A stretch of 59,650 nt of DNA, counting the filler. It is 3 parts of 3 records of this genome, joined end to end, with 100 filler letters (N's around TTAATTAATTAA, not from the genome) between each part and the next. Parts side by side here need not be neighbours in the genome. Positions count along the whole stretch, not along the records: positions 13,246 to 37,136 come from SRR20825019_1186; 2 more parts are not named here. One strand, written 5' to 3'. This document shows, in pieces, positions 1-24,334 of this stretch. Numbering within the stretch: the first letter of the stretch is position 1; every line of letters begins with the position of its first letter. The notes under the pieces were generated by a model. The model saw only the letters and a program-made list of their open reading frames with translations. It was not told the origin of the DNA and did not search any database. The translations under genes and the position numbers were made by a program.

Positions 1-28
1 AACCAACCAACCAACCAACCAACCAACC
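1..28. repeat. (AACC)7 microsatellite at contig start
   Basis: Seven perfect AACC units; lies inside the intron opened by the minus-strand GTGAGT donor at 157. Confidence 0.9.
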
Positions 29-157
29 ACTCCCGAAGACAATCGAATTCTATAGTACACTAGAACACATGTTCAAAAGAGTATTCCATATCACAAATAC
101 TAGTATTGGGCAGCTGATATCTAGACTCTCAGACAACGGCTTGGAATCCCCACTCAC

Positions 158-715: not shown

Positions 716-1822
716 GGCTCGTTATGAGACAGCGGTGGTCGTTCACCGCCAATATTTCAAGAGGGTAACCGATGGCTAAACGGTCCCATGGCGCCTTGGT
801 CCACAGACGGTAGGCCCGTTGCCACGCTGCAAAAGCGAAGACCGCCGGTCGGCCTCCGCGGGAAGTTCCGTCAGCCGGCCAGCCCGGCCGCTGCGGCCAC
901 GGGTCGCACCGCGCCTGTCCTGGGGGGCGGCCGCCCGTGTGCGCCCGGGCCGGGCCTGGGCGCGGGGCGGCCCGGCCCGGCCCGGGCGGCCGGCCGGGCC
1001 GGCGGCGCCCGCCCCGGGGCGGGGCCCACCGGGCACCGGTCGTCGGGGGCTTGTCCGCGGCACTGCACGGCACGCGGCAGCAGGGGTTGCAAGCCTCGGC
1101 AAAGTTGACCCGGCCTGAGGTCCGTGACGAGGCCATGACAGTCCGGCTCCAGCCATAACCATGGTGGTTTGAACATTTACTCTGGACGTCAAACATTTTG
1201 GCGTCGCCTTAGGGATCATGATACCCGATACTTCCGGTGATCATTGGAGATCGAATCTCTCTCCCTGCGCGGACAGTGAGTGACGATCGCGACCGTGCCC
1301 AGGCGAGGAGGCCGGCCCGGCCGCCCGGCCGCCGGGCCGCGGGCGGCCCTCCGGCGGCACGAGCCCCGACAGCCTCGGGCGCACGTCCCAACCCTCAAAC
1401 GGTAGTCGGTCCTGGCCGCCAGCCGCCGGGACGTGGCGGCCCATGATGGCCCAGTGCTGGTCGATCATGGTCTTTTCAGAGAATAGAAGCGCGAGTCAAC
1501 TTTCGTTTCAGCGCCTCCCCGACGCACCCTGGCCGGCGGGCCGTGCCGGGGCCTAGTGACTCGAGATGCTGCTTGCCTGCGCCGAACATGACACGCGAAC
1601 TGGCCGGATCTCAGGGGAAGTTTCAGTCGAAAGCTGAGGGTGGTCGTGGTAGGTGGGGTTGCAGTGCCGCCTGATCCGAGTGAGGAACCCCCGACGGCAG
1701 GGCATTCGGCGGGGAGAGTGGGTTGTTCTGGCTAAGCGCCTCGACGTGGACCCCGGAACAGCCTGCGCCACTTAGATAGATAAAATCGAGTGATTGTGAA
1801 GTTTTGAAGCTCACAATTGAGG

Positions 1823-7800: not shown

Positions 7801-10800
7801 AAATCCGGAGCATTATTGAGGTGGAAAAACTTATGCTGACTTGGACGTTGCGGTTGATCTGACGGCCCATATACGATAGCGGAGTGTGGAAGAGATACTG
7901 GTGGAGGGGGTACACCCCGATATTGCCTTGATACATAGCGAGGCTCGAAATATGATCAGTAGGCGAAAGCGATAGTTATTTCAAGGGGACCGGAACTGAC
8001 TGGACTGATATCGCAGAGAGAGATAAGATCCTTGCGGAATATCGAGTGGGCCTTCGTCAGGTGTATCTCTACCTTCATGCCCGCTATGACGAGATCAAGG
8101 GAGTGTTCACTGCCTTCTGTGAACCCTTCCCCGCGGACAACGACTTTGGCGACAATGCCGAAAATGCAAGTGCGAACGTGATGCACACCGACGCATTCAA
8201 AAGATTTGTTGAGGAAGCGAAGCTGGCTGGCGATGACCAGACGGGACCGCCTTATGTGACAGCTTTCGTTGATGATCTGCGACAGCGGGCAGTACGGGCA
8301 CTGGGTGACGACCCCAGGGATGACGGTGCGTCCCTTCTCTGTGCTTTCTTCTTGTGGTTTTGGTGTTTCGGTTATTGGATACATGCCCGTGTGATCCAAG
8401 GCGCCACCGATAGCATTTGTTTCTAACTTCACTGCAGATTCCAGTCTCGATGAGGGAGCCGATGATCAGCTCACGCTGCCAATGTTTATCATGTCTCTAT
8501 TATTCTTTGCGCATGAGAAATATCACGTGAGTTGTTGGCGAAGGGTTGCGACCGTAGAGGGTTTCTCACACAACCTCAGGAGGAGCTGGATATCCTCTCA
8601 ATAGACAAGGTCAAGAGTATGTTTGAGGGGCATATCATTGGGGTGGCGCACTCTGAGGGCCCACATTCTGGCCCGGTGAACGTTGACACTCCGCCATCGT
8701 TGTTAAGGAACATGAAAATCATTGAGGATATTGAGTCGAAAGTTCGAAGTGTAGACACGCGTACCCAGGCGCCCTTAGGCAGACAGGATAACGATGCTGC
8801 GGAGTCATCAGCAGGTAAATGAACCCGTCTGTGCCAATGCGGAGTGTGATAGCCGACGTGGGTGTACAGATGATGGAGAGGACGATGACGATGACTATGA
8901 CGATGAATGGGAAGAAAATGAGGTGGAAGAGGCGTGGTACACCAGCGAATCGGAGTCATCTGAAGGAACGAACCTGGAGGACCCCGGTATATGATATCGA
9001 ACAATGAGGATGAAACGTTGGATGCTGAATATTTATATCTCAGATGAGGAGGTCGGAGTGGACATAGACGGAGTCGAGCTTGACGATGGAGCCATCCCCC
9101 ACCATTTCAAGTGCCCTATAACCCAAGAGCTTATGACATTTCCAGTCGTCGCGGTGGATGGCCAGACGTATGATAGGCAGTCCATCCGCAAGTGGTTCCG
9201 TCGCAGTCGCCGATCTCCCCTTACGGTAACCCTCGCGCCTCACACACATCGTAGCCATTGACATACCATACTTCAGGGCTTGCGGCTTCGACGGATCTTT
9301 ATTCCCAACTATAATCTGAAAAGTCAGATCAGCGACTTTGTTGACACCGAGCGAGAACGGCAGACTGCGACGAATACGAGCCAGTCGGGATCCCTTCCTC
9401 GCGCACTTGATTTCTCCGCCGAGCTGTCCACATCCCAGAATGTGCATCAGGATGCCAGCACGACGGCTCCATCCGATACCGACCTCAGCGTCGATCGCTC
9501 ACGTTACTTCAACAATTCGAGGGTAGGCCCCTGGAGTCTTGTCATTGCCCCAGCTCACTCCGGTCCGTGTGTCCTGCCATAGGCATCAGCTCAATCCGAG
9601 GGTGCGGAGAGTTCTAGCACCTCGCGTCACCGCCAATCACGGACAACCTCCGCCAGGCACCGGTACGACTGGCGCATCCTTATGTATATCAACCAGCGCC
9701 ATGATGAACTGACATTCGATTCCAGAATTATGGAACGATTCAGACTGGAGGCGGGGCTTCTCTCGCGTGCACTCAGGGTTGCTACGGATGTCTCTGATGA
9801 TGCTGTCCCCGGTTCTTCAGATTGCCCGATCCACAAGGCGGCTCCCCTTGAGCCGATGAATGAATCATCTGAGTGCACTTGTGCTGTTGAACAGGTTTCA
9901 TATTGGAGATCACTGTGCCACTCGCTTCGTCACCGGACCGCCAGGGTAGACCTGGCAGGCTGGTCGGAGCCCGGCCGAGTGAAGGAATTGTTTGAAAAGT
10001 GTAACGCCGCTGAACTTCTTGAAACGGATCTCTTCAATTGGATTGAGTCGAGGCTGGGCGAGGGTAAGGATTGCAAGGTAAGTAGGGCGCTTCCGAGGAA
10101 CGGGATGCGGTGCCATGTACCAACTGTGTCGTCCTGCAGGTCCTTCGGCATTCACCGCAAGAGATCGCAGGATCACTCGGCGAACCAAATGCCGCGGACG
10201 TGGTGGCATGGACATACATAGGTGAGGCGGCACTGGGATGTCGCTGAATTGATAATGGCTGACGAATGTTGACCGGATTCAGATGTTCCGACGCTTCCAG
10301 CGGTTCGTAAGCTGCCAGCCTGCGCGCACACCCTGACACACCTCGGCATGGACACTTGCCAAGTGTTCATTGAGCTTGAGGGTAGCCTTGTGATCAGTGT
10401 GGACAGCAGCAGCACATTCAACAGCGATGAGAGCAAGGAGCTTCTGGAATCCCTCTGCAACATTGCGACAATGGATCCCGGGCTGGTGGCGTATGCGCGC
10501 GCAATCGCTCGCACCCATGTGCAGCCCCGGGCGGCCGATGATGACTCCTCACCAATAGCCACGACTGATGGAGCGGAGAAAGAGGAGAAGGCGGCGGATA
10601 CTGTGCCCAACTCGGTCGGAACGGACGAGGAAGCCACCCCGCGATCCAGCAATGGTGGCTCTCAGCCCCAATCCAGCGGCACGCGGAGCGACTCGTCGTT
10701 TGGTGCACTCTTTCCTGCCGGAATCTGCCATGACTTGGGCGAGGTTGCTCGGGAGCTGTTGCGAAAGCGGGTGATGTGTCAACGTGTCGTGAGCGCCCAG

Positions 10801-12648
10801 TCACTGGGGGTTGGTGCGGCCGTCATTGAAATGACAGTTACCGGGCCTGCGGGGTGGCTTGCGACACGGGTTGAAAATGAGGAGCGCATCCGCCGAGGGC
10901 CCGACGCGGGGATTGCCGATGACGTAAACAGCGTCGGGGCACTTCAGGACGGAGAGTAAGTCGAAATTGTACGGTTGCGCCAACACGGCTCTGATATCTG
11001 TCTTAGGCTTTGGTGGATGCCCCGTTGCTTGGTGCCGGTAGACTTCGATCATGACCGGTACGGGGAGGCACAAGTGAAGTCTTGCCTCAGCAAACTAGGG
11101 ATTCCCGCCGGTGATGTAATGTCGGTATCCCGACGAGATGATGCGACACACAAACGCTCCGTCAAGTTCAATGAAGAGGCCGACCCTGGTGAGAATAATT
11201 CCCGCCAATCAACCTGTTTCTATATTTAGAACTCATGGGCGGTTTGATACAGATGATGAGAACGAGGAAGGCTTCGATATCAGCATCCGGGTGTTTCCGT
11301 ACCACGTGGAGTGCGTTACCTCGGGATGGACTGAATCCGTCTCCCGCGGCCTGAATCTTTCCGATAACGAGCGGCTGGTCCGGCATCGGCCTTCGGGCTT
11401 GGTCGAGACTGACATCACAGGTGCGTTGGCTGTGATCATGGGTGGACCCCCTCTGACTGTGGTTTCCAGGGACAGTGGATGTCAAGTGGATTGCAGGAGA
11501 AGATGTGTCTTGTCTCCCAGGCCACGCGGCGGCGTCCGATGCCATTGTGAGTGCACTTGTATGATAGATGAGACACCTGTCTAACTGAATGTATAGTGCC
11601 GGGTCTCGTGTGAGTTAGAGCTTGCGGAACTGATTCAACAGGCTGATCGGACACCCGCACCATCTGCCCCACCTGCCCCTGCCGTCCTAGCTGAGTACCG
11701 CAACGAGGTTCGAAAACTGCTGGGGCTGGCTGCGCAAGGCCACGATGGGGAGAGATCCAAAGATGAAATCATGGAGGAACTCGGCTCTGTTCCAATCAAC
11801 CAGTTATCCTTGTCCTCTGACGACCATGACAAGGCACTTTGTATCATAGCATGGGACGAGATTGCTGCGGTAGGTGGTGGCGGGTGGCGGCGGACCGGCG
11901 CGGTTTTGAGCTGATAATTCCGTGCTGCAGCACCATATCAGCAAAAAGGAACCCTCCAAGGCCATGAAATACTATCAAAGGTAAGTGGCTCCGGCTTCCC
12001 AAGGGTGACAATGGGTTAACCCCTACTATCCAGAATCGTCGACTCCACAAGCAATATGGACCGCCCTGACCTCTCGGAGACTTACGCACGCGCCATAGCC
12101 TCCATGGCAGGTGTTCACAGGTACTATCCCAGTCATCCATCGAACCCCGCCATCCGGATCTATATACACATGCATGGATCTCTATACAACCCCATTGCAC
12201 CAGCACCACTAACAAAGTATACACATATCAGATCTCTCAAGGACCACTCAGAGAGCGAGAAGCATTACACACGCGCACGGGAAGTGTGCCGCGCCAACAA
12301 GCTCCAGTCCACTTCGGTATACCATGACATTCTTTACGACTTTGCTGGAGTGTCGTGCCTATTGGCAAAAGAACGCAAGGACGAACCCGAAACCGCCGAA
12401 ACCCACGGCCAGGCAGCCCTGGACGCCCTGCAAGAACTCCGTGGACTCCTGGGGAAGAATCACTCCAAATATTGTAGGGAAACACCCTTGCACACAACTG
12501 AAACATGAACTAATTGTGTCTGTTTGCAGTGAGCACGCTTCACCTCACCGCCCGAGTGGCTCGGCTTGTGAAGGATGGCAAGGTGGTCGCTCAGGTGGAG
12601 AAGGAGTTTGCATCCGCGGTAGCGGGCCTCTCCTCGCCCGTCAAATAG
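1823..12648 (+). CDS. Large multi-exon eukaryotic gene: KLC/NPHP3-type TPR repeats, beta-propeller-like region, U-box domain, C-terminal TPRs
   Basis: More than 25 short GT-AG introns restore frame (e.g. 2143-2214, 2308-2360, 2568-2660, 4924-4977, 6116-6168, 9226-9276, 12474-12529). TPRs include LGERHPTLATVLNNIASIHVENEEYDEALRLYTQCLE; WD40-like strands include IRDVAYS and LAVGCRDGSVVI; the U-box reads HFKCPITQELMTFPVVAVDGQTYDRQSIRKWF..SPLT..IPNYNLKSQI; stop TAG at 12646-12648. Not every junction was resolved, so it could be two genes. Confidence 0.75.
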
Positions 12649-13108
12649 CGAGCATCGTCGCCAGTGTAAAAATAGAACCACCTTGTTTCAGTTCTTTTTG
12701 GTTCAAAGTACACTAAGGCAACCGACTCACGGATTCACTGTGACATAGGCGGCTCAGTCATCACAACCCTGCCTGAACCCGCGCCATGATTCTATGAACA
12801 TGAAAATCGGTCCTCCGTGCCGGTTTGTCGTTATCAAGTCTGCCTCTCGCGGTTTACTTAAGCGGTGAAGCCACACCCGCACCCACCAGCTCCGCTCCCC
12901 GCCGGAGACGGTCAGCCGCGAGTTAGGCGCCGGGGGGCCAACCGGGTCCCGCAAACCACCGCCGTCGCCCGGGGCCGGAGCCCGGGCACGGCGCCCGGTG
13001 CCCGCGCCGGCGCCGCGGCCCCCCCCCGGCTGGGGCCGGCCGCCGCCCGGCCTCCCGGCTCCCGCGGTGGGCCAACGGCCTCTCGAGGCCCGGCAAAGAA
13101 AAAAAAAT

Positions 13109-13145
13109 TACAAGAGGTGGGGATCGAACCCACGACCTTGTGCGT
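13109..13145 (-). tRNA. 3' half of a tRNA gene truncated by the contig end; isotype not determinable
   Basis: Minus strand AC-GCACA-AGGTC-GTGGG-TTCGATC-CCCAC-CTCTTGT-A gives 3' anticodon stem, variable loop, T arm and acceptor strand; no encoded CCA; followed by a T-run (13099-13107) typical of a Pol III terminator. Confidence 0.85.
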
Positions 13146-13245
13146 NNNNNNNNNNNNNNNNNNNNNNNNNNNNNNNNNNNNNNNNNNNNTTAATTAATTA
13201 ANNNNNNNNNNNNNNNNNNNNNNNNNNNNNNNNNNNNNNNNNNNN
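13146..13245. other. Artificial contig linker
   Basis: 44 N + TTAATTAATTAA (stops in all six frames) + 44 N. Confidence 0.99.
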
Positions 13246-13271
13246 GTCCCGGCTCTCCGGCCGGGATGACG
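13246..13271. repeat. Right arm of an alphaproteobacterial intergenic palindromic repeat at the contig edge
   Basis: GTCCCGGC-TCTCCG-GCCGGGATGACG hairpin; resembles the right arm of the element at 46642-46718. Confidence 0.55.
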
Positions 13272-13302
13272 ATTACTTTTAGTTCCTTCTCAGAACCCAC
13301 CC

Positions 13303-14127
13303 TCAGAACCCGGCGTCGCCTTCCCAGTATTTGTCGTTCAGATTGCGCATCAGTTTGTCGTGGCTCTTTTCCAGGCAGCCGCGCAGGCGGACCTTGTAGC
13401 CTTGGTCACCATAGGCCTTGCAGCGCGCGTAGGCATCGCGGGCGGCCTCGATGCCCTGCGGTGCGAACTGCTTCAGATTGGCGGGCGTGGTCGCCTTGTC
13501 CCAGACGCCGCCGCGCAGCGCTTTCCCTGCATACCCGTCAGCCGGCAGCAGATTGATCATCCGCGAGATCAGGGCGCCGCTATCGGCGCGGGGCGAGCCG
13601 TTCTCGAAATAGCCTTCCGCCAGCACCCGCTTCTCGCCGAGCGCAGCGTCCAGATCCTCTTTGCTGGGCCGGGCGGCGACCGTCGGCGCGGAACGGGGCA
13701 GAAGGGAGACCCGGCGCGGCACACTCAGGGCGATCGAGGCGGCATCGAGGGAGGCGAGCCGCCCTGCATCCATAGAGATCCGGACCGAGGTATAGGCGCC
13801 GGTGCTTTCGAAATGCAGCAGGCCCGCGGCCGAGAACTCGGCTGTGCTGCCGTCCTTCTTCGCCACCACCATGGTGATATCGCCTTCCCCGGCGACGTCA
13901 TAGACATGGCCGGCGTCCGGCTTCGGGCGGTGTTCCTGCAAGCAGAAGGCGGAGAAGAACCCGGTGCAGGTTCCGTCCGTACAATCGAGCGGGACCGGGA
14001 GCTTGGTGGCCACGAGGCCGAGAACCTGGGGCAGTTTTATTTCGGCCGCGCTGGCCTCGGCTTTGCTGCTGACGGCGACAGCGGCAAGGCCCAGGCAGAG
14101 GGCGAAAGACGCAATATGTCGGAACAT
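13303..14127 (-). CDS. Secreted hypothetical protein with paired cysteines
   Basis: GGAGGAG SD before ATG 14127; signal peptide MFRHIASFALCLGLAAVAVSSKAEA; CTDGTC..C and C-terminal C..C; host-like codon usage. Confidence 0.8.
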   Translation of the reverse strand: MFRHIASFALCLGLAAVAVSSKAEASAAEIKLPQVLGLVATKLPVPLDCTDGTCTGFFSAFCLQEHRPKPDAGHVYDVAGEGDITMVVAKKDGSTAEFSAAGLLHFESTGAYTSVRISMDAGRLASLDAASIALSVPRRVSLLPRSAPTVAARPSKEDLDAALGEKRVLAEGYFENGSPRADSGALISRMINLLPADGYAGKALRGGVWDKATTPANLKQFAPQGIEAARDAYARCKAYGDQGYKVRLRGCLEKSHDKLMRNLNDKYWEGDAGF

Positions 14128-14425
14128 GGCTATCTCCTCCGGAGCTGGCCGGTCTGTCCCGCAACCATGAAGACCGGGACGTCCGGCTTTATGCGTTGAA
14201 GAAAGCATCTCACCCGGCGCGCATAGGTTCAATCGCCGTCTTGGCTGTTCACGCGCATGGGAAGTCCGCCACCGGCAGCAGGAGCAGGCTGTGTCGCAGG
14301 CTCAGCAAGGGATTACGCCAGATCAAATCTGGCTCAAGGGCGACAACAGATGACGCGCATTTGAAAGTTCGGACTTCCAATCGTGCTCATATCAATCCAG
14401 CGAACAAAATTGTGGAGGACACGAG

Positions 14426-16021
14426 ATGACCGCTGAAGCTCGGGATCTCGAAGGAGCCGGTAACGGTATTGATGCTGCCGGCGAAGCGCGCGGCCGTCGC
14501 GGCCGCAGCGGTGGTGGCCGTGAAGCCCGCCGCGCCTCCAGGGCGAAGCCGAGCCAAGTGCAGGCGCCCTACATCACCCGCAACGTGCCGGTCTATGAAG
14601 TTCTCACAGAGGAAGGTCTCGAAATCATCGAGGCCAATGCCGAGACCATCATGGAAGAGATCGGCATTGAGTTTCAGGACGACGAGGAAGCCCTCGCCCT
14701 GTGGCGCGATGCCGGCGCGGACGTGCAGGGCACGCGCGTGCATATCCCGCGCGGTCTCGCCCGCACGCTCTGCGCGACGGCGCCCTCCACCTTCACCCAG
14801 CATGCCCGCAACCCGGCCCGCTCGGTTGAGGTCGGCGGCAAGAACACGATTTTCGCGCCGGTTTACGGCCCGCCCTTCGTCAGCGACGTCGATGGTGGCC
14901 GCCGCTATGCGACCATCGAGGATTTCCAGAATTTCGTGAAGCTGACCTACATGCTGCCGTCGCTGCACCATAGCGGCGGTACGGTGTGCGAGCCGGTCGA
15001 TCTGCCCGTGAACAAGCGGCATTTCGACATGGTCTACGCGCACATGAAATACAGCGACAAGCCGTTCATGGGCTCCGTCACCGCGCCGGAACGGGCGCAG
15101 GACACGGTGGACATGGCGAAGATCCTGTTCGGTGTCGAGTTCGTCGAGAATAACACGGTCTGCACCAGCCTGATCAACGCCAACTCGCCGATGGTCTGGG
15201 ACGGCACCATGCTGGGCGCCTTGAAAACCTATGCCCGCAACAACCAGGCCTGCATCACCACGCCGTTCATCCTCGCGGGCGCCATGTCGCCGGTGACGGT
15301 GGCGGGGACGCTGGCCCAGACCCTGGCCGAAGCCATGGCGGGGATCGCCTTCGCCCAGCTCGTTCGGCCGGGCGCCCCGGTGATCTTCGGCTCCTTCGCC
15401 AGCTCCATCTCCATGCAGTCGGGCGCCCCGACCTTCGGCACGCCGGAGCCTGCCATGGTGCTCTATGGCTGCGCCCAACTGGCTCGCCGTCTCGGTGTTC
15501 CGTTCCGTTCCGGCGGCTCCCTCTGCGGCTCCAAGACCCCGGATGCGCAGGCGGCCTATGAATCCGCGCAGACCCTGAACCCGACGGTGATGGGCGGCGT
15601 CAATTTCGTGCTACACGCGGCCGGCTGGCTCGAAGGTGGCCTCGTCGCCTCCTACGAGAAGCTGCTGATGGATGCGGACCAGCTCGCCATGATGCCGACC
15701 CTCCTGGGCGGCGTCGACCTGACCGAAAACGGACAGGCCATGGACGCGATCCGCGAGGTCGGCCCCGGCAAGCATTTCCTCGGCTGCGCCCATACCCAGG
15801 CGAATTTCGAAAACGCCTTCTTCCGCTCGAAGGTCGCCGACAACAACACCTACGAGCAATGGGCCGCCGAAGGCTCCCGCGACGCCTACCAGCGCACCGG
15901 CGACCGGGTGAAGACCATGCTGGCGGAATATCAGGCCCCGGAAATCGATCCGGCCGTGGACGAGGCGCTGGTCGAATTCATGACCAAGCGGAAGGCGGAG
16001 TTTCCAGATTCGATGGTCTGA
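14426..16021 (+). CDS. Trimethylamine methyltransferase (MttB) superfamily protein, non-pyrrolysine; probable glycine betaine methyltransferase
   Basis: Motifs APVYGPPFV, SGGTVCEPVD, DKPFMG, INANSP, PFILAGAMSP, SGAPTFGTPE, HAAGWLEGGL, GPGKHFLG; GGAGG SD; no in-frame TAG. Confidence 0.92.
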   Translation: MTAEARDLEGAGNGIDAAGEARGRRGRSGGGREARRASRAKPSQVQAPYITRNVPVYEVLTEEGLEIIEANAETIMEEIGIEFQDDEEALALWRDAGADVQGTRVHIPRGLARTLCATAPSTFTQHARNPARSVEVGGKNTIFAPVYGPPFVSDVDGGRRYATIEDFQNFVKLTYMLPSLHHSGGTVCEPVDLPVNKRHFDMVYAHMKYSDKPFMGSVTAPERAQDTVDMAKILFGVEFVENNTVCTSLINANSPMVWDGTMLGALKTYARNNQACITTPFILAGAMSPVTVAGTLAQTLAEAMAGIAFAQLVRPGAPVIFGSFASSISMQSGAPTFGTPEPAMVLYGCAQLARRLGVPFRSGGSLCGSKTPDAQAAYESAQTLNPTVMGGVNFVLHAAGWLEGGLVASYEKLLMDADQLAMMPTLLGGVDLTENGQAMDAIREVGPGKHFLGCAHTQANFENAFFRSKVADNNTYEQWAAEGSRDAYQRTGDRVKTMLAEYQAPEIDPAVDEALVEFMTKRKAEFPDSMV

Positions 16022-16143
16022 TCTGATTGAGGACGGCGCAGCGGCTTATGCTTACTGGCATCTCCTGCTCCACCAAGTGGACAGTTCGGTCGTTTCTCTA
16101 ATAATGCGCAGGACGAGGCGAGACTTACGTACATTTAGATTGG

Positions 16144-19100
16144 TTATTGCCACGGCCATTGGACGCCTTGCGCTATTGGCGTCCCAAAGAGAGTCTTTTC
16201 CGCGTCACGCTGCTGCCGATCAACGGAATTCTTCAGTTCTTCCGACGACAGGGCCCAATGAGCAAACCATATGGGGGCGATGTTTTGCTTGGCTTTGTGA
16301 ATGAGTGGCCCGCTCCAATGGAGCGCCCTGAGATCAGCTAATTTGGTGTAGAGACGAAAGTAACCGTATGCTTTCGCACGATCCGATTGCTCGTCGATGA
16401 ATTTGTTGAGCCAGTAACGAGCGTCTCGGTTTCGTTCATAATTTTGTTTCGCGTTGGAGAATACTTTCTTGAGCCATCCGTCACATGGCGGCGCTTCGAG
16501 TTTTCTACCCCAGAGTTTTTCTGATTCTTCGGACTGGTCCAATAGTCCGGCCATCCAGATTCCTCGCGCAATCGAGCCGGACGAACCTGAAGTCAGTAGT
16601 TCTTCGACATAGCCGATCATCCAACTGTCTTGCTCGTAGCCAATGGCCGTGCTGGCGATCACCAGAAGATCTCTGTCTGTTTTTGCTTCGGAACAAACCG
16701 TTCGGCGGAGTTCACCCACCGGGGATGAGTCCGGAACTCTAAATGGTAGATAGTCATTGTCGGATGATGTGAACGTACCTTCGTCTCGTGCGGCTTTCAT
16801 CAGCTTCCATAGTTTAGCTCCCTCGTCGGGTGCAGCGCTCAATAATCCATAACAAAGGTCCTGCAGGGTTTCTGCTTCTAGCCCGAGATGTATGGTTCTT
16901 AGCTTGAACTCTCCATTCAGTATCGGCTGCAGCCAATCCAGTACCTGCTGGTGCCTCACTTCAACAAATGCGCAAATTGTGCCGCGCCTGAAAATCGTCT
17001 CTCGGTGATACACGCGACTCCTGGCTGGGGAGTACACTTCTTGATTGAGGCATTGGCGAATGGACTCAGCGAGAGAATCTAGTTCTTCTTTCTCACCGAT
17101 TTCGGTTTCTTGGAAGGCAGACCCGCCCCAGGATTCAACGAGTGTTCTAGCTCGAAGTTCTTCTTGGGTAGTAGATTGGGTCGCTCGTGCCATTACAAGT
17201 GACCCGTAGATCGCTTCCCCTCGGTCCATATCGTCTTCGATGCGCCATCCAGTTGCCGCCAGTGCGTCCGCGAGCTCCCGCTGACCCGATTTATGCGCTA
17301 CTTCAAAAGCCCGATGCCGTACGCGAGCGTTTGCGTGAGAGAAGCTGGCAACAAGCGGAGGGAAACCCCGTGGAAGATTCATCAGTGGCGCGCATCGGAG
17401 ATACCAGAGCCAGTTAATTAGGGCCGTGTCGTCAGGAGCATTGGAGATGCATCGACCGGTGATCTCGAAGTCTTCTTTACTTGGCGGGGCAAGGATAGCT
17501 TTATGCTGGCGGTCAATTACTGGACCCTTCGCCGACCTCCGGAGAATTTCAATCTGCTCTTGGGCGGGTTGATCCGCGAGCGCTATAAGTTGCCGTCGAT
17601 AGGAGAGGCGTTTCTCGTAGTCACCAGTCCAAATTTTTTCGCAAAGCTTCTCAACTAATTCAGGAGCCGCAGGCGTAAGAGCCAACAAGTGACTGGGTAT
17701 ATGGAACGCCACATTATCGGTTTCTTCCTTCTCGCTCGTTTGTCTGGAAAAACATATTCTTCTGATCAAATCGACCAATGCATGCGGTGCCCACCTTGCT
17801 AATGCGGCTTCGGCATCGTCGAAATCGCTTTCTGCGCCGGTCTTCCCAACTGCGGTCCAGATTTCGTCAGGGGCAGTCGCTTTGGCAAAAGAACCCAATC
17901 TTTCCTGGTCATCGTGACTTAATTCCACCTCGGGGTCTGTGGAGTAGCGGGAAAGCTCTGCTGCAATTCGTAACGGTGTCGAAGGCGCATTGGGCGGATC
18001 GTTCCTGTCCCATTTGAGCATTCCTTTGTCATCGACGGTCACGCGTCTTCGCCAGTTCAAGCCGGGAAGACAAGGCTTGGGGATATCCGCGCGAAGCGCC
18101 ATTGCCCTCGGAGTGGATAGCGCGTCCAAAAGGATGCTGGCGGCATCGGTGGTTATTCTATGACCGTATGCCTTCAGGTCTCTTGCTTTCTTAAGTACCG
18201 CTTTTTCGAATTGATCGAGAGAGGTCGCGTTTGCCAAGCGCATGATCCAGGCGATCTTGTCGAAGCCGTGGCACCCGTGCTCTGTGCCGTTCATGATGCT
18301 GCGGCTGACGGACCATGCCACGATCGGAGAAAGCACTCTTTCTACCGGCAAATATGACAGAATGCCGATCACCCGATATGCCAGCCAGGGTACATCGCCG
18401 GTAATCTTGTCTCGTATCGGAATGGAGGTAAGGAACTCTTCGTCTGAACTTAGCTTTTCCCAAGACTTGCGGTTTCTCTCGGTGCTCTGTGGACTCTGTT
18501 CAGCATCTTCATCTTCCGGATGATCCCAATGGGTCGCCAGCCATTCGGTGGACCATTCAACGATCCCGAGTTTGTCCCAGTTTTCGGCTGCGTTCGCGAA
18601 AGCTTTGATCATGAACTCATCTCGAACTGGGTCACCAGCTCTCCGGAGCCACATTTCTTCGTAGAATGCGAGGAAGGTATTGATGTCTTCTGGAATGATC
18701 CGCCAGAAGACATGAAAGTCGTTTGCTGAAAGGTTCTGGCGCCGAAGCCAATGTTTCAAAATGCTTTGACGAACCACTGTCGAACACCGTTCGTCCAGAT
18801 GGCAGATCACCGCAGCATGACGAAAGATCTGGGTAGCATAATCCTGCTCATTCAGAGGGTCGGAAAATTCAGCGATCGCGCCGTCTAAAGCTTTGTCGTC
18901 GACTTCCGACAATCGATCCACGAGCAGCATCGAAAGGACAAATGGGAGTTTGTCTTTCTGTAGCCGGAAACGGTTTGGTTTGCCTACAATTCCCTCCATC
19001 CAATTTCCGTCAACAATCTCGCTGATCGAGTAACGGATTACGTCTTCGGACGGCGTGCTCTCCGTCGACAGGAATTCGGCAATCTCTTTGCGGTTGAGTG

Positions 19101-20610
19101 TCAGATCGGAATGGTTGGCCGACTCGATTTGTTCATATAACCGCGTTCCCAATATGCGGACGTACTCGTGGAATTCCTCGCTGGAGATCAAGTGCGCGCC
19201 TTTGTAGCGAGATACGCGGTCTTTCCAGTCCTCAAATACCAAACGCTCGGGCGTGATATCGCCGGACTCGGCCATCGTGGCTCTGTGTCGGATGGCCAGC
19301 ACACTAAGTCGGGGTATCTTGAGCAGAGAGATTAGTGCGGGAACAAACTCAGCACGGTCCAGTCCGTGAAGCTCTAGCAAATTATCGAGCTCTTCATCGC
19401 TGAATGGAGGAACTGTGACTTCAGTGGGTATCAGGCCAATAGGCTCGATATCCTGCCGCACCCTGCGCCAGTGATCGGGACGGCATGACATTGCAATCTT
19501 GGCATTATGCTTCCAGTCCCCATCATTCAATTTTGCGATGACCTCGCGCCATTGCGAGAATTCCCAGTTCTCGTTCAATCCATCGAAAAACAAAAGGAAG
19601 CGTGGATGTTGTTTGGTCGCAGATAGCCAGAGATCGAGTCGGCGGCGCCAGAACTCAACGTTCCTCTTTCTTGTTCTTTCGTGCAGGGTCTGGGCGATGA
19701 GGCCATTTATGTCGCCACCTCCAAACTGAACGGCTGGTATGACGAGGGTCACCGGCAAGGTGGATTCAGTGGATTGTGATTGTTTGATCCACCAGGCTAG
19801 GAATGACCATGACTTGCCGACACCTTCTCTTCCTAGGAGTGCCAGCAACGGATTCTGGCTACTAAACCACTCACTCACCAATAGCGAGAGCTTCGGCCGC
19901 GATGCTACTTTCGTTTGTTCATCGAGAAGATTGACGACGGAGTGTAATCGCGAGAATCCGCGATCGCGTTCTGCCATAGCTTCCAAATGCCAATTCTCGA
20001 TGGACGCGCGAGCGCTTTCCCAACCCATGTCCGGCTGCGTAAGCTCCTCGATTAAGTTCTCAGACTCGGCTTTGAAATTCGGATGTGCGGCAATTTCTGC
20101 TAGCTGATTGGCAATGTTTTCACGGCCGCCCGATTTCGCACGTTCGATCAGTGTCTCAGGAAGTAACGCACAAAGAACGGCGAGGCGGGGGAGCATGGTG
20201 GACGATTCCGACCAATCGATAAATGCGACACCGACACCGAAGTCGTCCCCACATGCATCGAGCGCCATGCGATCGTTTTGGTTGATCTCACAGGTTGCAC
20301 CGTAAACCATCACATCGAGATCGGATTTCGATCTGACTGCGTCGATGAGCTTTGCCTTTAGATCATCAAGTTTCAGTGGCGCGGTTCCGTATCGCTTTGC
20401 TTCGACAGCGATAGCCGGGCCTTGGGTGGCAGAGGACGTGCCCATGTCTGAACCGCCTTGGGCTCCACCACCCTTTGATAAAATTAGACGCTTCTGGATT
20501 ACCTTTGAAACCGCATCGCGGAGTAATCCTTCAAAACCGGACTCGCCTGCAGGTCGAAGTGCATTCAGATGGTTCTTTATGAGTGTAAGATTCTTAATGT
20601 GTTCGCCCAT
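16144..20610 (-). CDS. Mrr-like PD-(D/E)xK nuclease + STAND NTPase + long helical-repeat protein (Avs/NLR-like defence candidate)
   Basis: N-terminal GFEGL..QGGSD..VEAKRY; Walker A GREGVGKS (19810-19833); Walker B FLLFFDGLNE (19570-19590); sensor MSCR; VPPFSDEEL; HEAT-like LVASFSHANARVRHRAFEVA; lower GC than the flanks. Confidence 0.8.
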   Translation of the reverse strand: MGEHIKNLTLIKNHLNALRPAGESGFEGLLRDAVSKVIQKRLILSKGGGAQGGSDMGTSSATQGPAIAVEAKRYGTAPLKLDDLKAKLIDAVRSKSDLDVMVYGATCEINQNDRMALDACGDDFGVGVAFIDWSESSTMLPRLAVLCALLPETLIERAKSGGRENIANQLAEIAAHPNFKAESENLIEELTQPDMGWESARASIENWHLEAMAERDRGFSRLHSVVNLLDEQTKVASRPKLSLLVSEWFSSQNPLLALLGREGVGKSWSFLAWWIKQSQSTESTLPVTLVIPAVQFGGGDINGLIAQTLHERTRKRNVEFWRRRLDLWLSATKQHPRFLLFFDGLNENWEFSQWREVIAKLNDGDWKHNAKIAMSCRPDHWRRVRQDIEPIGLIPTEVTVPPFSDEELDNLLELHGLDRAEFVPALISLLKIPRLSVLAIRHRATMAESGDITPERLVFEDWKDRVSRYKGAHLISSEEFHEYVRILGTRLYEQIESANHSDLTLNRKEIAEFLSTESTPSEDVIRYSISEIVDGNWMEGIVGKPNRFRLQKDKLPFVLSMLLVDRLSEVDDKALDGAIAEFSDPLNEQDYATQIFRHAAVICHLDERCSTVVRQSILKHWLRRQNLSANDFHVFWRIIPEDINTFLAFYEEMWLRRAGDPVRDEFMIKAFANAAENWDKLGIVEWSTEWLATHWDHPEDEDAEQSPQSTERNRKSWEKLSSDEEFLTSIPIRDKITGDVPWLAYRVIGILSYLPVERVLSPIVAWSVSRSIMNGTEHGCHGFDKIAWIMRLANATSLDQFEKAVLKKARDLKAYGHRITTDAASILLDALSTPRAMALRADIPKPCLPGLNWRRRVTVDDKGMLKWDRNDPPNAPSTPLRIAAELSRYSTDPEVELSHDDQERLGSFAKATAPDEIWTAVGKTGAESDFDDAEAALARWAPHALVDLIRRICFSRQTSEKEETDNVAFHIPSHLLALTPAAPELVEKLCEKIWTGDYEKRLSYRRQLIALADQPAQEQIEILRRSAKGPVIDRQHKAILAPPSKEDFEITGRCISNAPDDTALINWLWYLRCAPLMNLPRGFPPLVASFSHANARVRHRAFEVAHKSGQRELADALAATGWRIEDDMDRGEAIYGSLVMARATQSTTQEELRARTLVESWGGSAFQETEIGEKEELDSLAESIRQCLNQEVYSPARSRVYHRETIFRRGTICAFVEVRHQQVLDWLQPILNGEFKLRTIHLGLEAETLQDLCYGLLSAAPDEGAKLWKLMKAARDEGTFTSSDNDYLPFRVPDSSPVGELRRTVCSEAKTDRDLLVIASTAIGYEQDSWMIGYVEELLTSGSSGSIARGIWMAGLLDQSEESEKLWGRKLEAPPCDGWLKKVFSNAKQNYERNRDARYWLNKFIDEQSDRAKAYGYFRLYTKLADLRALHWSGPLIHKAKQNIAPIWFAHWALSSEELKNSVDRQQRDAEKTLFGTPIAQGVQWPWQ

Positions 20611-20611
20611 A

Positions 20612-21739
20612 CTACCAGCCGTTGCGCCGATCCCACCGGGCGATGATTTCGTCCGAGCCTTCCTCGAACACCTCGTATCCCTCATACGCGGCAACCGTCA
20701 TGCAGACATGGTTCGGCAGGACGCGGACGCGGGCGCCAATGGGCAATTCCTCGTAGAGCGCCGGGTCGGGCAGATGGACTTCGCCGTGCTCCTGATGCGT
20801 GCCCCGGATGGTGAGGCCGTGCAGAGGTTTGCCTGTTTCCAGATCCGCCAAGAGGCCGAAGCCCATATCGCCACCCTTGCCGAGAGCTTCGGTCGAGCGG
20901 TCCTTGGAGAGGGCGATGCCGCCCGCATCGAGGATCAGGGTGCCGCGTGCCTTGTTATGGGAGATCACGCTGGCGACAACGGCTGAGGCGATATCGTCGA
21001 TGCCGTGACTGCCGATCCCGGCTTGGAATAGATCGCCGAGCGTATAGACGCCGGGGCGCATTTCGGTGACGCCGTTGAGGTGATCGGCATAGAGCGCGGT
21101 CGGGGTCGAGCCGACGCTGACGATCGGGCAGGCGATGCCGTCCGCCCGGATCAACTCGGCCGCCGCGACCGCCGCGTCCCGTTCGGCACTGGCGACGGCT
21201 TTCATGTCTTCCGGCGTGCGGCCGCGATAGGAATGGCCGCCATGGGTCATCACGCCGGCGAGGCGGGAGCGCGGGGCCTTGTCCAGAATCCGGGCGATGG
21301 CGATCAGGCGGTCATTGTCCTGATCGACGCCCGTCCGGTGCTCACCGCAATCAATCTCGATCAGGGCCGCATGGGTACCCGGGTGGGCGGCGATGGCGTC
21401 TGCCACCTCCGTACTGTCGATCAGGATCTTCAGGTCCGCGCCCCGGGCCGTCAGCGCGGCGGCGCGGTCCAGCTTCGAGGGCGGGATGCTGACGGCGTAG
21501 ACGATGTCGGCAAAGCCGTGTTCGAACAGATATTCCGCTTCCGCCAGCGTCGAGACGGTGACGCCGCCAGTCTGGCCCGCTGTTGCGATCTTCGCGATCT
21601 CCGCCGATTTGCCGGTTTTCATATGCGGGCGCAGGGCCACGCCGAGCTCTTTGGCACGCGCGCTCATGCGGGCGCAATTGCGCTCCACCCGGCTTTTGTC
21701 GAGGATCAGGCAGGGGGTCTGGAGGTCGGAAAGTTTCAT
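20612..21739 (-). CDS. PLP-dependent DSD1/D-threonine aldolase family enzyme (alanine racemase fold)
   Basis: TPCLILD, LRPHMKT (PLP lysine), VGSTPT, EMRPG, QEHG, VLPNHVC. Confidence 0.92.
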   Translation of the reverse strand: MKLSDLQTPCLILDKSRVERNCARMSARAKELGVALRPHMKTGKSAEIAKIATAGQTGGVTVSTLAEAEYLFEHGFADIVYAVSIPPSKLDRAAALTARGADLKILIDSTEVADAIAAHPGTHAALIEIDCGEHRTGVDQDNDRLIAIARILDKAPRSRLAGVMTHGGHSYRGRTPEDMKAVASAERDAAVAAAELIRADGIACPIVSVGSTPTALYADHLNGVTEMRPGVYTLGDLFQAGIGSHGIDDIASAVVASVISHNKARGTLILDAGGIALSKDRSTEALGKGGDMGFGLLADLETGKPLHGLTIRGTHQEHGEVHLPDPALYEELPIGARVRVLPNHVCMTVAAYEGYEVFEEGSDEIIARWDRRNGW

Positions 21740-21811
21740 GGTGGCTCGCGGGGGCTGGTGTCGGCGGGACGAGCAGCCTAGAGCCTCACCGGGCCGGGCG
21801 GCAAGCGGCGA

Positions 21812-22186
21812 TCATTCGGCGGCCTGGTTCACCCTGCCGTGGCTCTGCCGGGACTTCAGCTTGTGCCCGACCGCAACGATTGCGTTGATCGCCGGGACCA
21901 GCTCAAGACCGAGATCGGTCAGCGCGTATTCGACGGAGGGGGGAGAGGTCGGGAGCACCGTCCGGGTGATGACGCCAAAATCCTGCAACTCCTTCAGCCG
22001 GGTCGTCAGCATCTTGGCGGAGATGCCGGGAATATCCGCTTTCAGCTCGCTGAACCGGCGCGGGGCCTCGCTCAGATACCAGATGATGTTTGGAGCCCAG
22101 GTGCCGGAAATCAGGTTCAGGCACGTGCTGAGCGGACACCCGCCGGGCGGCGGATCGACCTTGCTCTTGCGCATTTTCAGAGCCAT
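21812..22186 (-). CDS. HxlR/DUF24 winged-helix redox regulator
   Basis: CPL..LNLISGTW, RRFSELKADIPGISAKMLTTRLKEL, PPSVEYALT. Confidence 0.92.
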   Translation of the reverse strand: MALKMRKSKVDPPPGGCPLSTCLNLISGTWAPNIIWYLSEAPRRFSELKADIPGISAKMLTTRLKELQDFGVITRTVLPTSPPSVEYALTDLGLELVPAINAIVAVGHKLKSRQSHGRVNQAAE

Positions 22187-22202
22187 GTGCACTCCGGAAG
22201 AT

Positions 22203-22262
22203 AGTTACTTGCGAGACGGGTTACCGCCCGGTTACCCGATAATGAAGTTACTAAAGGATACT
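22203..22262. promoter_or_regulatory. Putative HxlR-family operator region
   Basis: Four GTTAC half-sites clustered between the divergent regulator and monooxygenase genes. Confidence 0.4.
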
Positions 22263-22326
22263 TCATTTACAAAGGTAATCCAGTGTTTCTACATGGCAGG
22301 CGTCATTGCAGCAGGAGGAACGCAGT

Positions 22327-23403
22327 ATGACAGTGAACCAGGACGCGATTGCCCGGCTGGGCATCAGACACCCGATCATTCAGGGGCCGTTCGGCGGCGG
22401 TCTATCGACTATCGAGTTGGCGGCCACTGTTTCCAACAGAGGCGGGCTCGGGTCCTACGGAGCGCACATCACTGCGCCGGAGGACATCGGAGCTCTCACC
22501 CGCGCCCTTGAGAGCGCGACCGCCGCACCGTTCGCGCTCAATCTCTGGGTCTCGGACCATGATCCGGGCGGGGAGCATCTGAGCGACGAAGCGTTCGAGC
22601 GGCTCTATCCGGTTTTCGCGCCGTATTTCGAGGAACTCGGGCTGGCCAAACCTACCCCGCCGGAACGTTTCCACCACCGCTTCGACGATCAGATCGAAGC
22701 GCTGCTGGAAGCGCGTCCTCCGGTGTTCAGTTTTGTCTTTGGTATTCCCTCGAAGAAGATACTGGAAGAATGCCGCCGTCTCGGTATCCGGACCATGGGC
22801 GCCGCCACCACGCTGGCGGAGGCCGAAGCGCTGGACGCGGCCGGGGTCGATCTTATCGTCGCCACGGGCCTTGAGGCCGGCGGGCACCGGGTCTCCTTCC
22901 TGAAATCCGCGGAGGAAAGCCTGACTGGAACCTTCTCGCTGGTTCAGGTTGCCGCTGCCCATGTCGCGGCGCCGGTGATCGCTGCCGGCGGCATTGTCGA
23001 CGGGCGCGGTGCCCGTGCGGCGCTGACACTCGGTGCGGGCGCGGCGCAGATCGGCACCGCCTTTCTTGCCTGCACAGAATCCGGCACCAACCAGGCACAC
23101 CGGGACATGCTTTTCACCGATGCGGCACGGGAGACCGCGCTCACCCGTTCCTATACCGGGCGGCTGGCCCGGGGAATCCGGAACCGCTGGGTCAGCGAGA
23201 TGGCGGCCCGCGAGAACGAGTTGCCGCCGTTCCCGGTGCAGAGCTGGTTCTTCGGTGCAATCAAGGCAGCGGCGCTGAAGGCAGGGCGGGAGGATCTGGT
23301 TTCGCTCTATGCCGGCCAGTCCGCGCCAAACCTGAAACACCGGTCGGCCATCGCACTGATGGATGATCTGATCGGCGACCTCGAATCCGTCCGCGCCGCT
23401 TGA
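22327..23403 (+). CDS. Nitronate monooxygenase family flavoprotein
   Basis: HPIIQGPFGGG, GLEAGGHR, PVIAAGGIVDG, AQIGTAFL, TGRLARG; AGGAGG SD. Confidence 0.92.
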   Translation: MTVNQDAIARLGIRHPIIQGPFGGGLSTIELAATVSNRGGLGSYGAHITAPEDIGALTRALESATAAPFALNLWVSDHDPGGEHLSDEAFERLYPVFAPYFEELGLAKPTPPERFHHRFDDQIEALLEARPPVFSFVFGIPSKKILEECRRLGIRTMGAATTLAEAEALDAAGVDLIVATGLEAGGHRVSFLKSAEESLTGTFSLVQVAAAHVAAPVIAAGGIVDGRGARAALTLGAGAAQIGTAFLACTESGTNQAHRDMLFTDAARETALTRSYTGRLARGIRNRWVSEMAARENELPPFPVQSWFFGAIKAAALKAGREDLVSLYAGQSAPNLKHRSAIALMDDLIGDLESVRAA

Positions 23404-23499
23404 GCGATGCCGGACGTCCCTGCCGCCGGACCATTTCACTTTTCATGCCGCGATGCGGCGCAGGTCTGGCGAACCTTTCATCAACAGGAGATCAAGATC

Positions 23500-24120
23500 A
23501 TGAAGCTTTATTACATGCCGGGCGCCTGCTCCCTTGCGTCCCATATCGTGCTTTACGAAACCGGTGCGGCCTTCGATATCGAGAAGGTCGACGGGGCCAC
23601 GAAAAAAACGGAGACCGGTGCCGATTTCAGGCAGGTGCATAACAAAGGCTATGTTCCGGCCCTGCAGCTTGATGGTGGAGACGTGCTGACCGAAGGCGCC
23701 GCCATCATGCAGTATCTCGCTGATAATTCAGATAAAAAGGAACTTTCTCCAGCCTTGGGGAGCATTGCGCGCGCCCGGCTGCAGGCGCAAATCAACTTCG
23801 TCGGCACGGAATTGCACAAGTCCTTCAGCCCGCTGTTCAAAAAAGACTCAACAGAGGATGAGAAGGAAGCTGCCCGCAAGAAAGTCGCGTTGCGCCTGGA
23901 CGATGTGGAAGCAGAGCTTTCCGACGGCCGCGCGTTCCTCCTCGGCGACGATTTCTCCATCGCGGACGCCTACCTCTTCACCGTTGCCAACTGGACCAAG
24001 CCGACCGGTCTCGGTCTGGGCGAGCGGCCGAACCTGATGGCCTACATGGCGCGGGTCTCTGAGCGTCCGTCCGTGCAGGCGGCATTGCAGGCGGAAGGCC
24101 TGATCAAAAAAGAAACCTGA
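23500..24120 (+). CDS. gstA: Glutathione S-transferase, beta class
   Basis: MKLYYMPGACSLASHIVL, GYVPAL, LTEGAAI, ELHKSF, FSIADAYLF. Confidence 0.92.
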   Translation: MKLYYMPGACSLASHIVLYETGAAFDIEKVDGATKKTETGADFRQVHNKGYVPALQLDGGDVLTEGAAIMQYLADNSDKKELSPALGSIARARLQAQINFVGTELHKSFSPLFKKDSTEDEKEAARKKVALRLDDVEAELSDGRAFLLGDDFSIADAYLFTVANWTKPTGLGLGERPNLMAYMARVSERPSVQAALQAEGLIKKET

Positions 24121-24334
24121 TCAGGTTCCCTGTTGTGGCGGGAGGTCGCTGAGTCATCCAGTGGCGAGACCTTCCGCCCGATCGGGACGGCGGCACTCAA
24201 TTCCGAGTGGCGCCATCTGCGGCGTTTTGTTTTCAGTCCAGTATGATATGGGTTTTGACGGGATCGGGTCCGGTTTGCCGGATTTGGCGAATGAAAATTG
24301 ACCTGCGCGCGGATGGGGGCGAAAAGTCAAATCC

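Follow-up and report, generated by a model that had tools for sequence, protein, structure and literature searches.

A precisely inserted single gene for a nuclease-NACHT-solenoid protein, a probable NLR-type anti-phage system

Introduction

The closest described systems to the gene reported here are bNACHT25 and bNACHT32 of E. coli, members of NACHT clade 6 that consist of a PD-(D/E)XK nuclease, a NACHT module and an NCH1 domain and are described as protecting against phage (PMC12169576; the proteins come from the Kibby et al. 2022 preprint and from Conte et al. 2025). In bNACHT25, which is reported to sense through DnaJ, the nuclease-site mutation D48A leads to loss of defence (PMC12169576). 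Restriction endonuclease (REase) effectors and HEAT sensors are both mentioned by Kibby et al. among bacterial NACHT architectures. Another point of comparison is Avs4 (AVAST type 4), in which an Mrr-like nuclease and a STAND NTPase are paired with a TPR sensor of the phage portal protein; a structure bound to the portal of phage PhiV-1 is available (PDB 8dgf). For Avs3 and Avs7, the model presented by Lee et al. 2026 leads from target binding through tetramerisation to the assembly of the nuclease domains and the degradation of double-stranded DNA. The same work delineates 589 clades of STAND proteins (signal transduction ATPases with numerous domains) and 684 sensor clusters, with Mrr-containing proteins among its seeds. 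Here we describe a gene on the minus strand (positions 16,144 to 20,610) of a 59,650-nt stretch of DNA, referred to below as the window. The window joins three parts of three records of one genome, which need not be neighbours in that genome, with 100 filler letters between consecutive parts; positions 13,246 to 37,136, with the gene, come from SRR20825019_1186. We consider the product of this gene to be probably a single-protein anti-phage (abortive-infection) nuclease of the NLR (NOD-like receptor) type, acquired horizontally as a one-gene cassette.

Results

Architecture of the protein

The gene encodes a nuclease, a NACHT module and a helical solenoid in one polypeptide (Table 1). Its minus-strand frame is uninterrupted over 16144..20694, which gives 1516 aa from a TTG codon and 1488 aa from the ATG at 20610. 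The ATG is the better start, because the N-termini of the homologues align with it and because the 84 nt between the two codons lie outside the insert described below, in conserved flank DNA that is also present in relatives lacking the gene; on both counts the TTG at 20694 was rejected. The intact frame of about 1488 codons read by the first-pass annotation is thus open over its full length from the ATG, and every motif listed in that annotation is present at its reported place: GFEG (residues 25-28), GGSDMG (52-57, with D55), VEAKRY (69-74, with E70 and K72), GREGVGKS (260-267), LLFFDGLNE (339-347), SCRPDHW (375-381) and PPFSDEEL (401-408). Composition also sets the gene apart from both neighbours, as had been noticed at first reading. 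GC content falls to 0.51-0.53 over 16000-20500 from 0.64-0.67 on either side, and at third codon positions it is 0.55 in the gene, compared with 0.71-0.84 in 14 other genes of the window.

Table 1. Coordinates of the gene, its domains, the insert and the flanking genes in the window
Positions	Strand	Feature	Basis or remark
16144..20610	-	ORF (open reading frame) of 1488 aa, stop codon 16144-16146	nuclease, NACHT module and solenoid in one protein
20191..20610	-	residues 1-140, PD-(D/E)xK (Mrr-like) nuclease domain, E27/D55/E70-x-K72	model, alignment, Avs4 superposition
19876..20190	-	residues 141-245, helical linker between nuclease and NTPase	helices H142-222 in model
19351..19875	-	residues 246-420, NACHT nucleotide-binding domain	Pfam, alignment, VIA
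19810-19833	-	Walker A, GREGVGKS	
19570-19596	-	Walker B, LLFFDGLNE	
19468-19488	-	SCRP motif	
18751..19350	-	residues 421-620, helical and winged-helix domains of the STAND module	NLRC4, NOD2 and NLRP3 alignments reach model residue 620
16147..18750	-	residues 621-1488, all-alpha HEAT/ARM-like solenoid, presumed sensor	model
16046..20611		4566-bp insert: gene and 98 bp of 3' tail	missing at the orthologous site of related genomes
14426..16021	+	left flank, MttB-family methyltransferase gene, conserved host gene	Pfam MTTB 8.4e-239
20612..21739	-	right flank, Ala_racemase_N / D-ser_dehydrat gene	Pfam; stop codon 1 nt before the ATG of the inserted gene

After alignment of the window protein with homologues, the structure was predicted with high confidence in two overlapping models. 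Model 1 covers residues 1-620 (predicted local distance difference test, pLDDT, 86.9; predicted TM-score, pTM, 0.83), and model 2 covers residues 561-1488 (928 residues; pLDDT 87.9, pTM 0.90). In model 1, residues 26-131 follow the order helix-strand-strand-strand-helix-strand-helix-strand, and predicted secondary structure places helices at residues 26-38 and 81-94 and strands at 42-44, 56-58, 66-72 and 98-105. E27 sits on helix 1, D55 directly before strand 2 and E70-x-K72 within strand 3 of the model. An alpha-beta-beta-beta-alpha-beta core carrying E...D...(E/Q)xK is the layout of the PD-(D/E)xK nucleases, and a nuclease fold is therefore seen in the predicted structure. The same residues are conserved in a family alignment of 35 rows (A1): counted over non-gap rows only, E27 is kept in 30/30, D55 in 33/33 and K72 in 34/34, while position 70 has E in 31/34 rows and Q in the other 3. 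In its Mrr form the motif reads Q-x-K, and modification-dependent enzymes have Mrr_cat as their catalytic domain. Pfam Mrr_cat (PF04471) matches 4/33 homologues at E <= 0.05, among which P0063 (21.2 bits against a cutoff of 21) is the sole one at the gathering score; the window protein itself has no Mrr_cat match at E <= 1. The Mrr-like nuclease first suspected from a handful of motifs is thus borne out by the order of the fold, the family-invariant acidic and lysine site, the Mrr_cat matches of the four homologues and an Avs4 alignment that spans the N-terminal domain. A two-copy complex prediction for residues 1-160 returned a score of 0.00, which speaks neither for nor against dimerisation. 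An inactive restriction endonuclease (Pfam NA-iREase1) was considered and rejected, as no such Pfam match is found and the catalytic residues are conserved.

The nuclease is followed by a helical linker, the least conserved of the N-terminal segments (mean identity 0.30 in A1), and by a STAND module of the NACHT clade. NACHT (PF05729) is the sole Pfam family matched by the window protein and is found in 24/33 homologues at E <= 0.05, in 3/33 of them over the gathering score. The Walker A lysine K266 and the Walker B aspartate D343 are present in 35/35 rows of A1, and the positions after the latter alternate between acidic residues and amides (position 346: N in 29, D in 6; position 347: E in 18, Q in 17). 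A Walker A of the form GxxxxGK[ST] combined with a Walker B of the form hhhhDG with such a tail corresponds to the motifs of the STAND NACHT clade. P433 and R434 are invariant throughout the family alignment. The arginine of the SCRP/TCRP motif, R377 (putative sensor 1; column at 19480-19482), is present in the window protein and replaced by tryptophan in 11/35 members (P0020, P0023, P0032, P0039, P0044, P0048, P0052, P0053, P0055, P0058 and P0061).

Comparison of folds points in the same direction. With residues 1-620, Foldseek retrieves portal-bound Avs4 (8dgf) first (E 6.9e-9, 629-642 columns), then animal NLRPs and NLRC4, with Avs3 only in 19th place. The VIA comparison yields NLRC4 at Z 17.9 (root-mean-square deviation 5.0, 367 aligned residues, model residues 193-620), NLRP3 at Z 16.4, NOD2 at Z 16.3, Avs4 (chain 8dgf_B) at Z 14.6 and Avs5 at Z 12.8; the Avs4 alignment comprises 459 residues, places model residues 10-612 on chain residues 4-524 and includes the nuclease domain. 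The predicted nucleotide-binding domain, helical domain 1 and winged-helix domain (NBD-HD1-WHD) thus share the fold of solved NACHT proteins. According to the VIA scores, the switch module is NACHT-like, and the N-terminal architecture as a whole is Avs4-like. The STAND NTPase proposed earlier from motifs is upheld by the agreement of motifs and fold, but its kind is narrowed to the NACHT clade, nearer to NLRC4-like and bNACHT proteins than to Avs4.

The remaining part of the protein, about 870 residues, is all-alpha in the predicted model and richer in tryptophan than the N-terminal 620 residues (3.7% vs 2.4%). Foldseek matches of the C-terminal model are CAND1, CRM1, importins and SF3B1 (E >= 6e-5, TM about 0.2), generic solenoids only, and VIA gives a best Z of 10.9, followed by Kap123, beta-catenin, CAND1 and designed armadillo proteins. 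For the predicted solenoid, these matches lie under the level at which a likeness of helical repeats exceeds a common arrangement. Avs sensor chains are absent from the listed fold matches of the 928-residue model, which was searched whole with both programs, and ESM Atlas returns for residues 621-1488 only unnamed clusters with scores < 0.9. An all-alpha model with HEAT/ARM solenoid matches agrees with the helical, HEAT-like C-terminus of the first-pass annotation. In keeping with the accompanying remark that the sensor could not be assigned to a described Avs type, PADLOC 2.0.0, PDB sequences and the listed matches to PDB folds yield no match of the sensor to such a type.

Relatives of the protein

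A search of 5.8 billion proteins identified 79 relatives, most of them 1400-1560 aa long, with 22-41% identity along the entire protein; their names go no further than "hypothetical" or "NACHT domain-containing". The same 79 proteins, and no more distant named relatives, came back from a profile search of this set. With the C-terminal part as query, phmmer finds 451 matches at E <= 0.001 and 267 at E <= 1e-10 among 1.84 billion cluster representatives at 50% identity. Both the 79 relatives of full-length type and the 451 cluster representatives matched by the C-terminal part alone show that the ORF is beyond chance. Among the 150 C-terminal matches listed, the full-length ones are proteins of 1400-1600 aa with the matched region at about 600-1500. 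As the matched region is C-terminal in these full-length proteins, the sensor seems tied to a single architecture; the shorter matches may be fragments or split forms. The sensor is also the most divergent part of the protein, with a mean identity to the query of 0.26-0.27 in A1 versus 0.38-0.39 in the nuclease and the nucleotide-binding domain.

The family profile searched against PDB sequences, 8dgf included, has its best match in an unrelated ATP synthase gamma (E 0.37), and the only Pfam families in the query and 33 homologues are NACHT, AAA-type and Mrr_cat. Two marginal matches, PADLOC OloA (E 0.056) and the NCBIfam Sll1717 ATPase (E 0.02), were dismissed as noise. A literature search with three homologue locus tags found nothing.

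Homologues occupy 46 loci among species-representative genomes of Alpha-, Beta- and Gammaproteobacteria, cyanobacteria, Desulfobacterota and Binatia. Their distribution is patchy, extending over five or more phyla and mainly Pseudomonadota, with the architecture kept, and in several of the 46 loci the GC content of the gene is well under that of its flanks. Twelve plasmid records carry a homologue. None was found in 50,697 phage records, and a single relative was found in 2.9 million viral contigs.

The insertion site

The gene and its 3' tail form an insert between the convergent MttB-family and D-Ser-dehydratase-like genes. By searching 401 genomes of one class with the product of the upstream gene, we found a 95%-identical copy in the genome G134 (contig C88, locus L057). 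In blastn alignments, window positions 13300-16045 correspond to L057 6965-9713 (92.7%) and positions 20612-21785 to L057 9714-10887 (93.0%), which means that both flanks abut in L057. Comparison with G134 and the Pfam search reveal neither a target duplication nor a mobile-element gene at the insert. The insert starts 1 nt upstream of the ATG and brings no upstream DNA of its own, leaving a stop-T-ATG junction that suggests transcription by read-through from the upstream gene and coupling to it in translation. Compared with shuffled sequence, the 125-nt 3' tail folds no better (z = +1.3). In three runs from two studies, possibly including the window's own source, contigs cover positions 15800-20900 without differences, and one metagenome contig bridges the right insert junction; the arrangement is therefore not an assembly artefact.

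The site is conserved and its content is not. In the related genus, the left-flank mttB DNA is 88-94% identical in 10/10 genomes and the right flank is matched in 10/10, while the insert is found in 0/10: the flanks abut in seven genomes and enclose other DNA in three. Wide vertical conservation at this locus, which would argue against a defence role, is thus not what the related genomes display. Of the three occupied sites, that of G409 (L058, G409:C16, 1258-3775) holds 2.5 kb with a C5 methylase (PF00145, 1.2e-51), a helix-turn-helix protein and an EcoRV-family endonuclease (PF09233, 8.5e-15; PADLOC REase_II), which together make up a type II restriction-modification system. The site of G406 (L059, G406:C19) holds 0.9 kb with an ORF of 160 aa without known function, and that of G404 (L060, G404:C1) holds 0.5 kb with a DUF805 protein. 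From these three sites, the intergenic region between mttB and the dehydratase gene is a small variable hotspot, and two of its four known cargoes, that of the window included, are defence or defence-like.

Genomic context of the relatives

Neighbouring ORFs within 4.5 kb of the homologue were collected for 32 of the 46 loci. Fourteen loci were dropped before counting, seven as near-copies (L007, L009, L011, L015, L025, L023 and L046) and seven as short or incomplete (L016, L031, L033, L034, L037, L039 and L041). All 250 neighbour ORFs were searched with Pfam and 60 selected ones with PADLOC, and classes were assigned by reading of names. Clear defence genes are present in 15/32 loci, a tally made without a matched background. 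Genes for integrases, transposases, conjugation or plasmid replication are present in 8/32, and genes of either kind, defence or mobile, in 20/32. Five loci have ambiguous neighbours only (L018, L019, L029, L043 and L044, with a lone DNA methylase, SieB, a second NACHT protein, TPR-S and HipA), and 7/32 are without any defence-related, toxin-antitoxin or mobile-element gene (L003, L005, L006, L012, L024, L030 and L032). The neighbouring defence genes include Cmr5, AbiL, AbiEii (AbiE), type I, IIG and IV restriction-modification and Lamassu LmuABC; they also include Thoeris ThsA/ThsB with Uzume and a SIR2 candidate, QatA with SoFic, a second NACHT protein and several PDC candidates. Operationally, a defence gene is marked by patchy spread, by horizontal transfer and by a place in defence islands or hotspots; the family displays all of these, the last to the extent that a neighbour tally without background comparison can tell.

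Mobility is also seen in an element of 15-17 kb bearing the homologue, which L008 shares with L025, L007, L009, L011 and L015. Between genomes labelled Novosphingobium, Sphingobium and Sphingomonas the element shows 94-100% identity, and a metagenome-assembled genome (MAG) labelled Pseudorhizobium shares it over 11.2 kb (96.5%) and 3.7 kb (99.97%). It also carries AbiL, a PIN protein, an ADP-ribosyltransferase-like gene and an integrase. Four Sphingobium plasmids hold the same protein type as the homologue of the L008 element.

A conserved partner gene was considered and rejected; an MmeI-like type IIG enzyme is directly downstream in only 4/32 loci. These restriction-methylase genes are located at L026 14562-17375, L028 14722-17535, L036 5382-6089 (a fragment) and L038 14693-17473, and the four loci are divided between two branches of the family that are far apart, one of gammaproteobacterial MAGs and one of Desulfobulbaceae/cable bacteria. 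In the locus of Rahnella ecdela (L004, 15479-19816), a second, unrelated NACHT protein of 1446 aa is encoded 1.2 kb downstream of the homologue; its N-terminus matches the PADLOC SAVED_HNH-type and PDC-M68A endonuclease-effector models, and its C-terminus is an NCAB2 domain.

Other features of the window

Two further differences between the window and L057 are apparent. Positions 1-13300 have a GC content of 0.52-0.59 over most of their length, contain small ORFs only (<= 234 aa) and have no counterpart in L057. Among 24 ORFs scanned around this region, the last two at 13303-14229, none has a Pfam or PHROGs match, and PADLOC finds none in the 18 submitted to it; the region resembles an island peculiar to the strain, made up of ORFans or decayed DNA. 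Positions 21786-24306 (2.5 kb) hold nitronate monooxygenase and glutathione S-transferase genes, and the blocks bordering them are only about 140 bp apart in L057. Over the whole window, Rfam gives 0 matches and the tRNA scan 0 genes.

Discussion

The analysis establishes the three-domain anatomy of the protein, its conserved catalytic and NTP (nucleoside triphosphate) sites, the foreign origin and precise insertion of the gene, and the defence or mobile context of its relatives. Among described systems, bNACHT25 and bNACHT32 likewise join an N-terminal PD-(D/E)XK (Mrr-like) DNase, a central NACHT module and a helical C-terminus in one polypeptide, and the combination of effector and NACHT that defines them is found here as well. 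D55 of the window protein, the presumed equivalent of D48 in bNACHT25, is invariant in the family. By contrast, their C-terminus is NCH1, whereas that of the window protein is a HEAT/ARM-like solenoid of about 870 aa, the two being compared by description. Neither E. coli proteins nor bNACHT names occur among the 79 relatives found by single-sequence and profile searches, and no NCH-named Pfam family is found in the query or 33 homologues, with the presence of an NCH1 model in the Pfam copy used being unverified. Avs4 resembles the window protein in having a nuclease, a STAND NTPase and a helical repeat sensor in the same order, but the two lack sequence similarity in PADLOC and in the PDB-sequence profile search, and the window NTPase is nearer to NACHT proteins. 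The protein is not a member of Avs4 by sequence models or by similarity to SeAvs4. Animal NLRs (NLRC4, NLRP3 and NOD2) provide the best superposition of the NBD-HD1-WHD unit and share the NACHT-type Walker B DG-L-N/D-E, but combine it with a CARD or PYD adaptor and leucine-rich repeats instead of a nuclease and a HEAT/ARM-like solenoid. Avs3 and Avs7 differ in their nuclease, which is of the Cap4 family, and in their sensors.

Given its place in the NACHT clade and a layout like that of bNACHT25/32 and Avs4, we regard the group as an unnamed family and not as a new principle. The novelty implied by the first-pass annotation is accordingly lessened, as the PD-(D/E)XK-NACHT layout has already been validated experimentally in bNACHT25/32. 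The family may well be contained among the clades or sensor clusters of Lee et al. 2026.

The proposal of a single-gene defence system is strengthened by the precise, low-GC insertion of one gene, by the restriction-modification system at the same site in a relative and by the homologues in defence islands and mobile elements. By analogy with Avs3, Avs4, Avs7 and bNACHT25, from which the sequence of steps, oligomerisation, DNA as the substrate and the kind of trigger are inferred, such a system might operate as follows. The resting protein would be a nucleotide-bound, autoinhibited monomer. Its solenoid (residues 621-1488) would bind an infection signal, which may be a conserved phage protein or else a host factor that phage has disturbed, and binding would free the NACHT module (residues 246-620) for NTP exchange or binding and for oligomerisation. 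Oligomerisation would gather the N-terminal Mrr-like domains (residues 1-140), and the assembled nucleases would cut DNA irrespective of its sequence, so that the DNA of phage and host alike is destroyed and the infection ends.

Several observations weigh against an anti-phage role or its exercise in this host. The role itself is supported by context rather than by experiment. In the window, the neighbours of the gene are metabolic and not defence genes (Pfam), and the tally of defence neighbours in the relatives comes from loci chosen from 46 and has no matched background. PADLOC 2.0.0, run on the window protein alone, finds no Avs match at E <= 1, and no defence model claims the protein. Its match to Pfam NACHT (E 6.3e-4) reaches 20 bits, below the gathering score of 26.7, and hhalign against a bona fide Mrr_cat protein from one of the homologue-search loci is weak (E 0.011, probability 3.8%), the alignment placing FE, D and (E/Q)xK in register. 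In the subgroup of the family with Trp377, NTP hydrolysis or nucleotide handling may differ, judging from this substitution. Finally, scans for promoters and terminators score no better than chance, with no promoter upstream on the coding strand, and a recognisable ribosome-binding site is likewise missing from the insert; without such signals in the insert, expression in this host is unproven. Among the sequencing runs listed there is no RNA run, which counts neither way.

The last of these points leads to the possibility that the gene is a silent passenger in this genome, a recent cassette that lacks a promoter and stays unexpressed here, irrespective of the role of the family in other genomes. 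The absence of own upstream DNA and of a promoter-like site on the coding strand is what such a passenger would present, but its 1488-codon frame is intact and identical in the contigs of three runs, and the stop-T-ATG junction would be compatible with read-through and translational coupling; we consider the gene unlikely to be silent. It is less probable again that the protein is a STAND protein of some non-phage conflict or regulation, such as exclusion of plasmids or integrative and conjugative elements, mobile-element addiction or stress-triggered cell death. Homologues do reside on plasmids and integrative elements, and their near absence from phage records and viral contigs makes the link to phage an indirect one. 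However, the co-located genes are mostly anti-phage systems, the window gene travels alone without a mobile-element gene, and the tested proteins of the same architecture described in the cited papers are all anti-phage.

The Mrr-like character of the nuclease and the frequent adjacency of homologues to restriction-modification genes would also suit an NTP-regulated, type IV-like restriction enzyme that acts on foreign or modified DNA and uses the solenoid as a DNA-binding or regulatory scaffold. We give this explanation very little credence. The NTPase is a STAND/NACHT switch (NLRC4, NLRP3 and NOD2 at Z 16-18) and not a translocase or McrB-type motor, a long and fast-diverging repeat domain is typical of STAND sensors, and no DNA-binding domain is among the Pfam matches of the query and 33 homologues. 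An NLR-type anti-phage nuclease is the reading we prefer. A bolder version of it, possible but on balance doubtful, holds that the solenoid represents a sensor class outside the characterised Avs and bNACHT families with an undescribed trigger, which could be a host factor or a phage protein that does not belong to the known core set, and that the promoterless cassette was captured at a defence hotspot between two genes, exactly after the stop codon of the one that resembles a D-amino-acid dehydratase gene, with its expression tied to a host metabolic operon.

The protein adds a sizeable unnamed family to the bacterial NLR-like repertoire. PADLOC 2.0.0 models miss this protein, and genes of its kind are therefore left out when the defence systems of marine and soil alphaproteobacteria are counted. 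The locus is a clean natural case of a scarless one-gene insertion, at a hotspot that bears restriction-modification in a sister species, and is useful for studying the exchange of single defence genes without mobile-element machinery. If the trigger does prove to be a new one, the list of phage and host patterns read by bacterial STAND receptors would grow.

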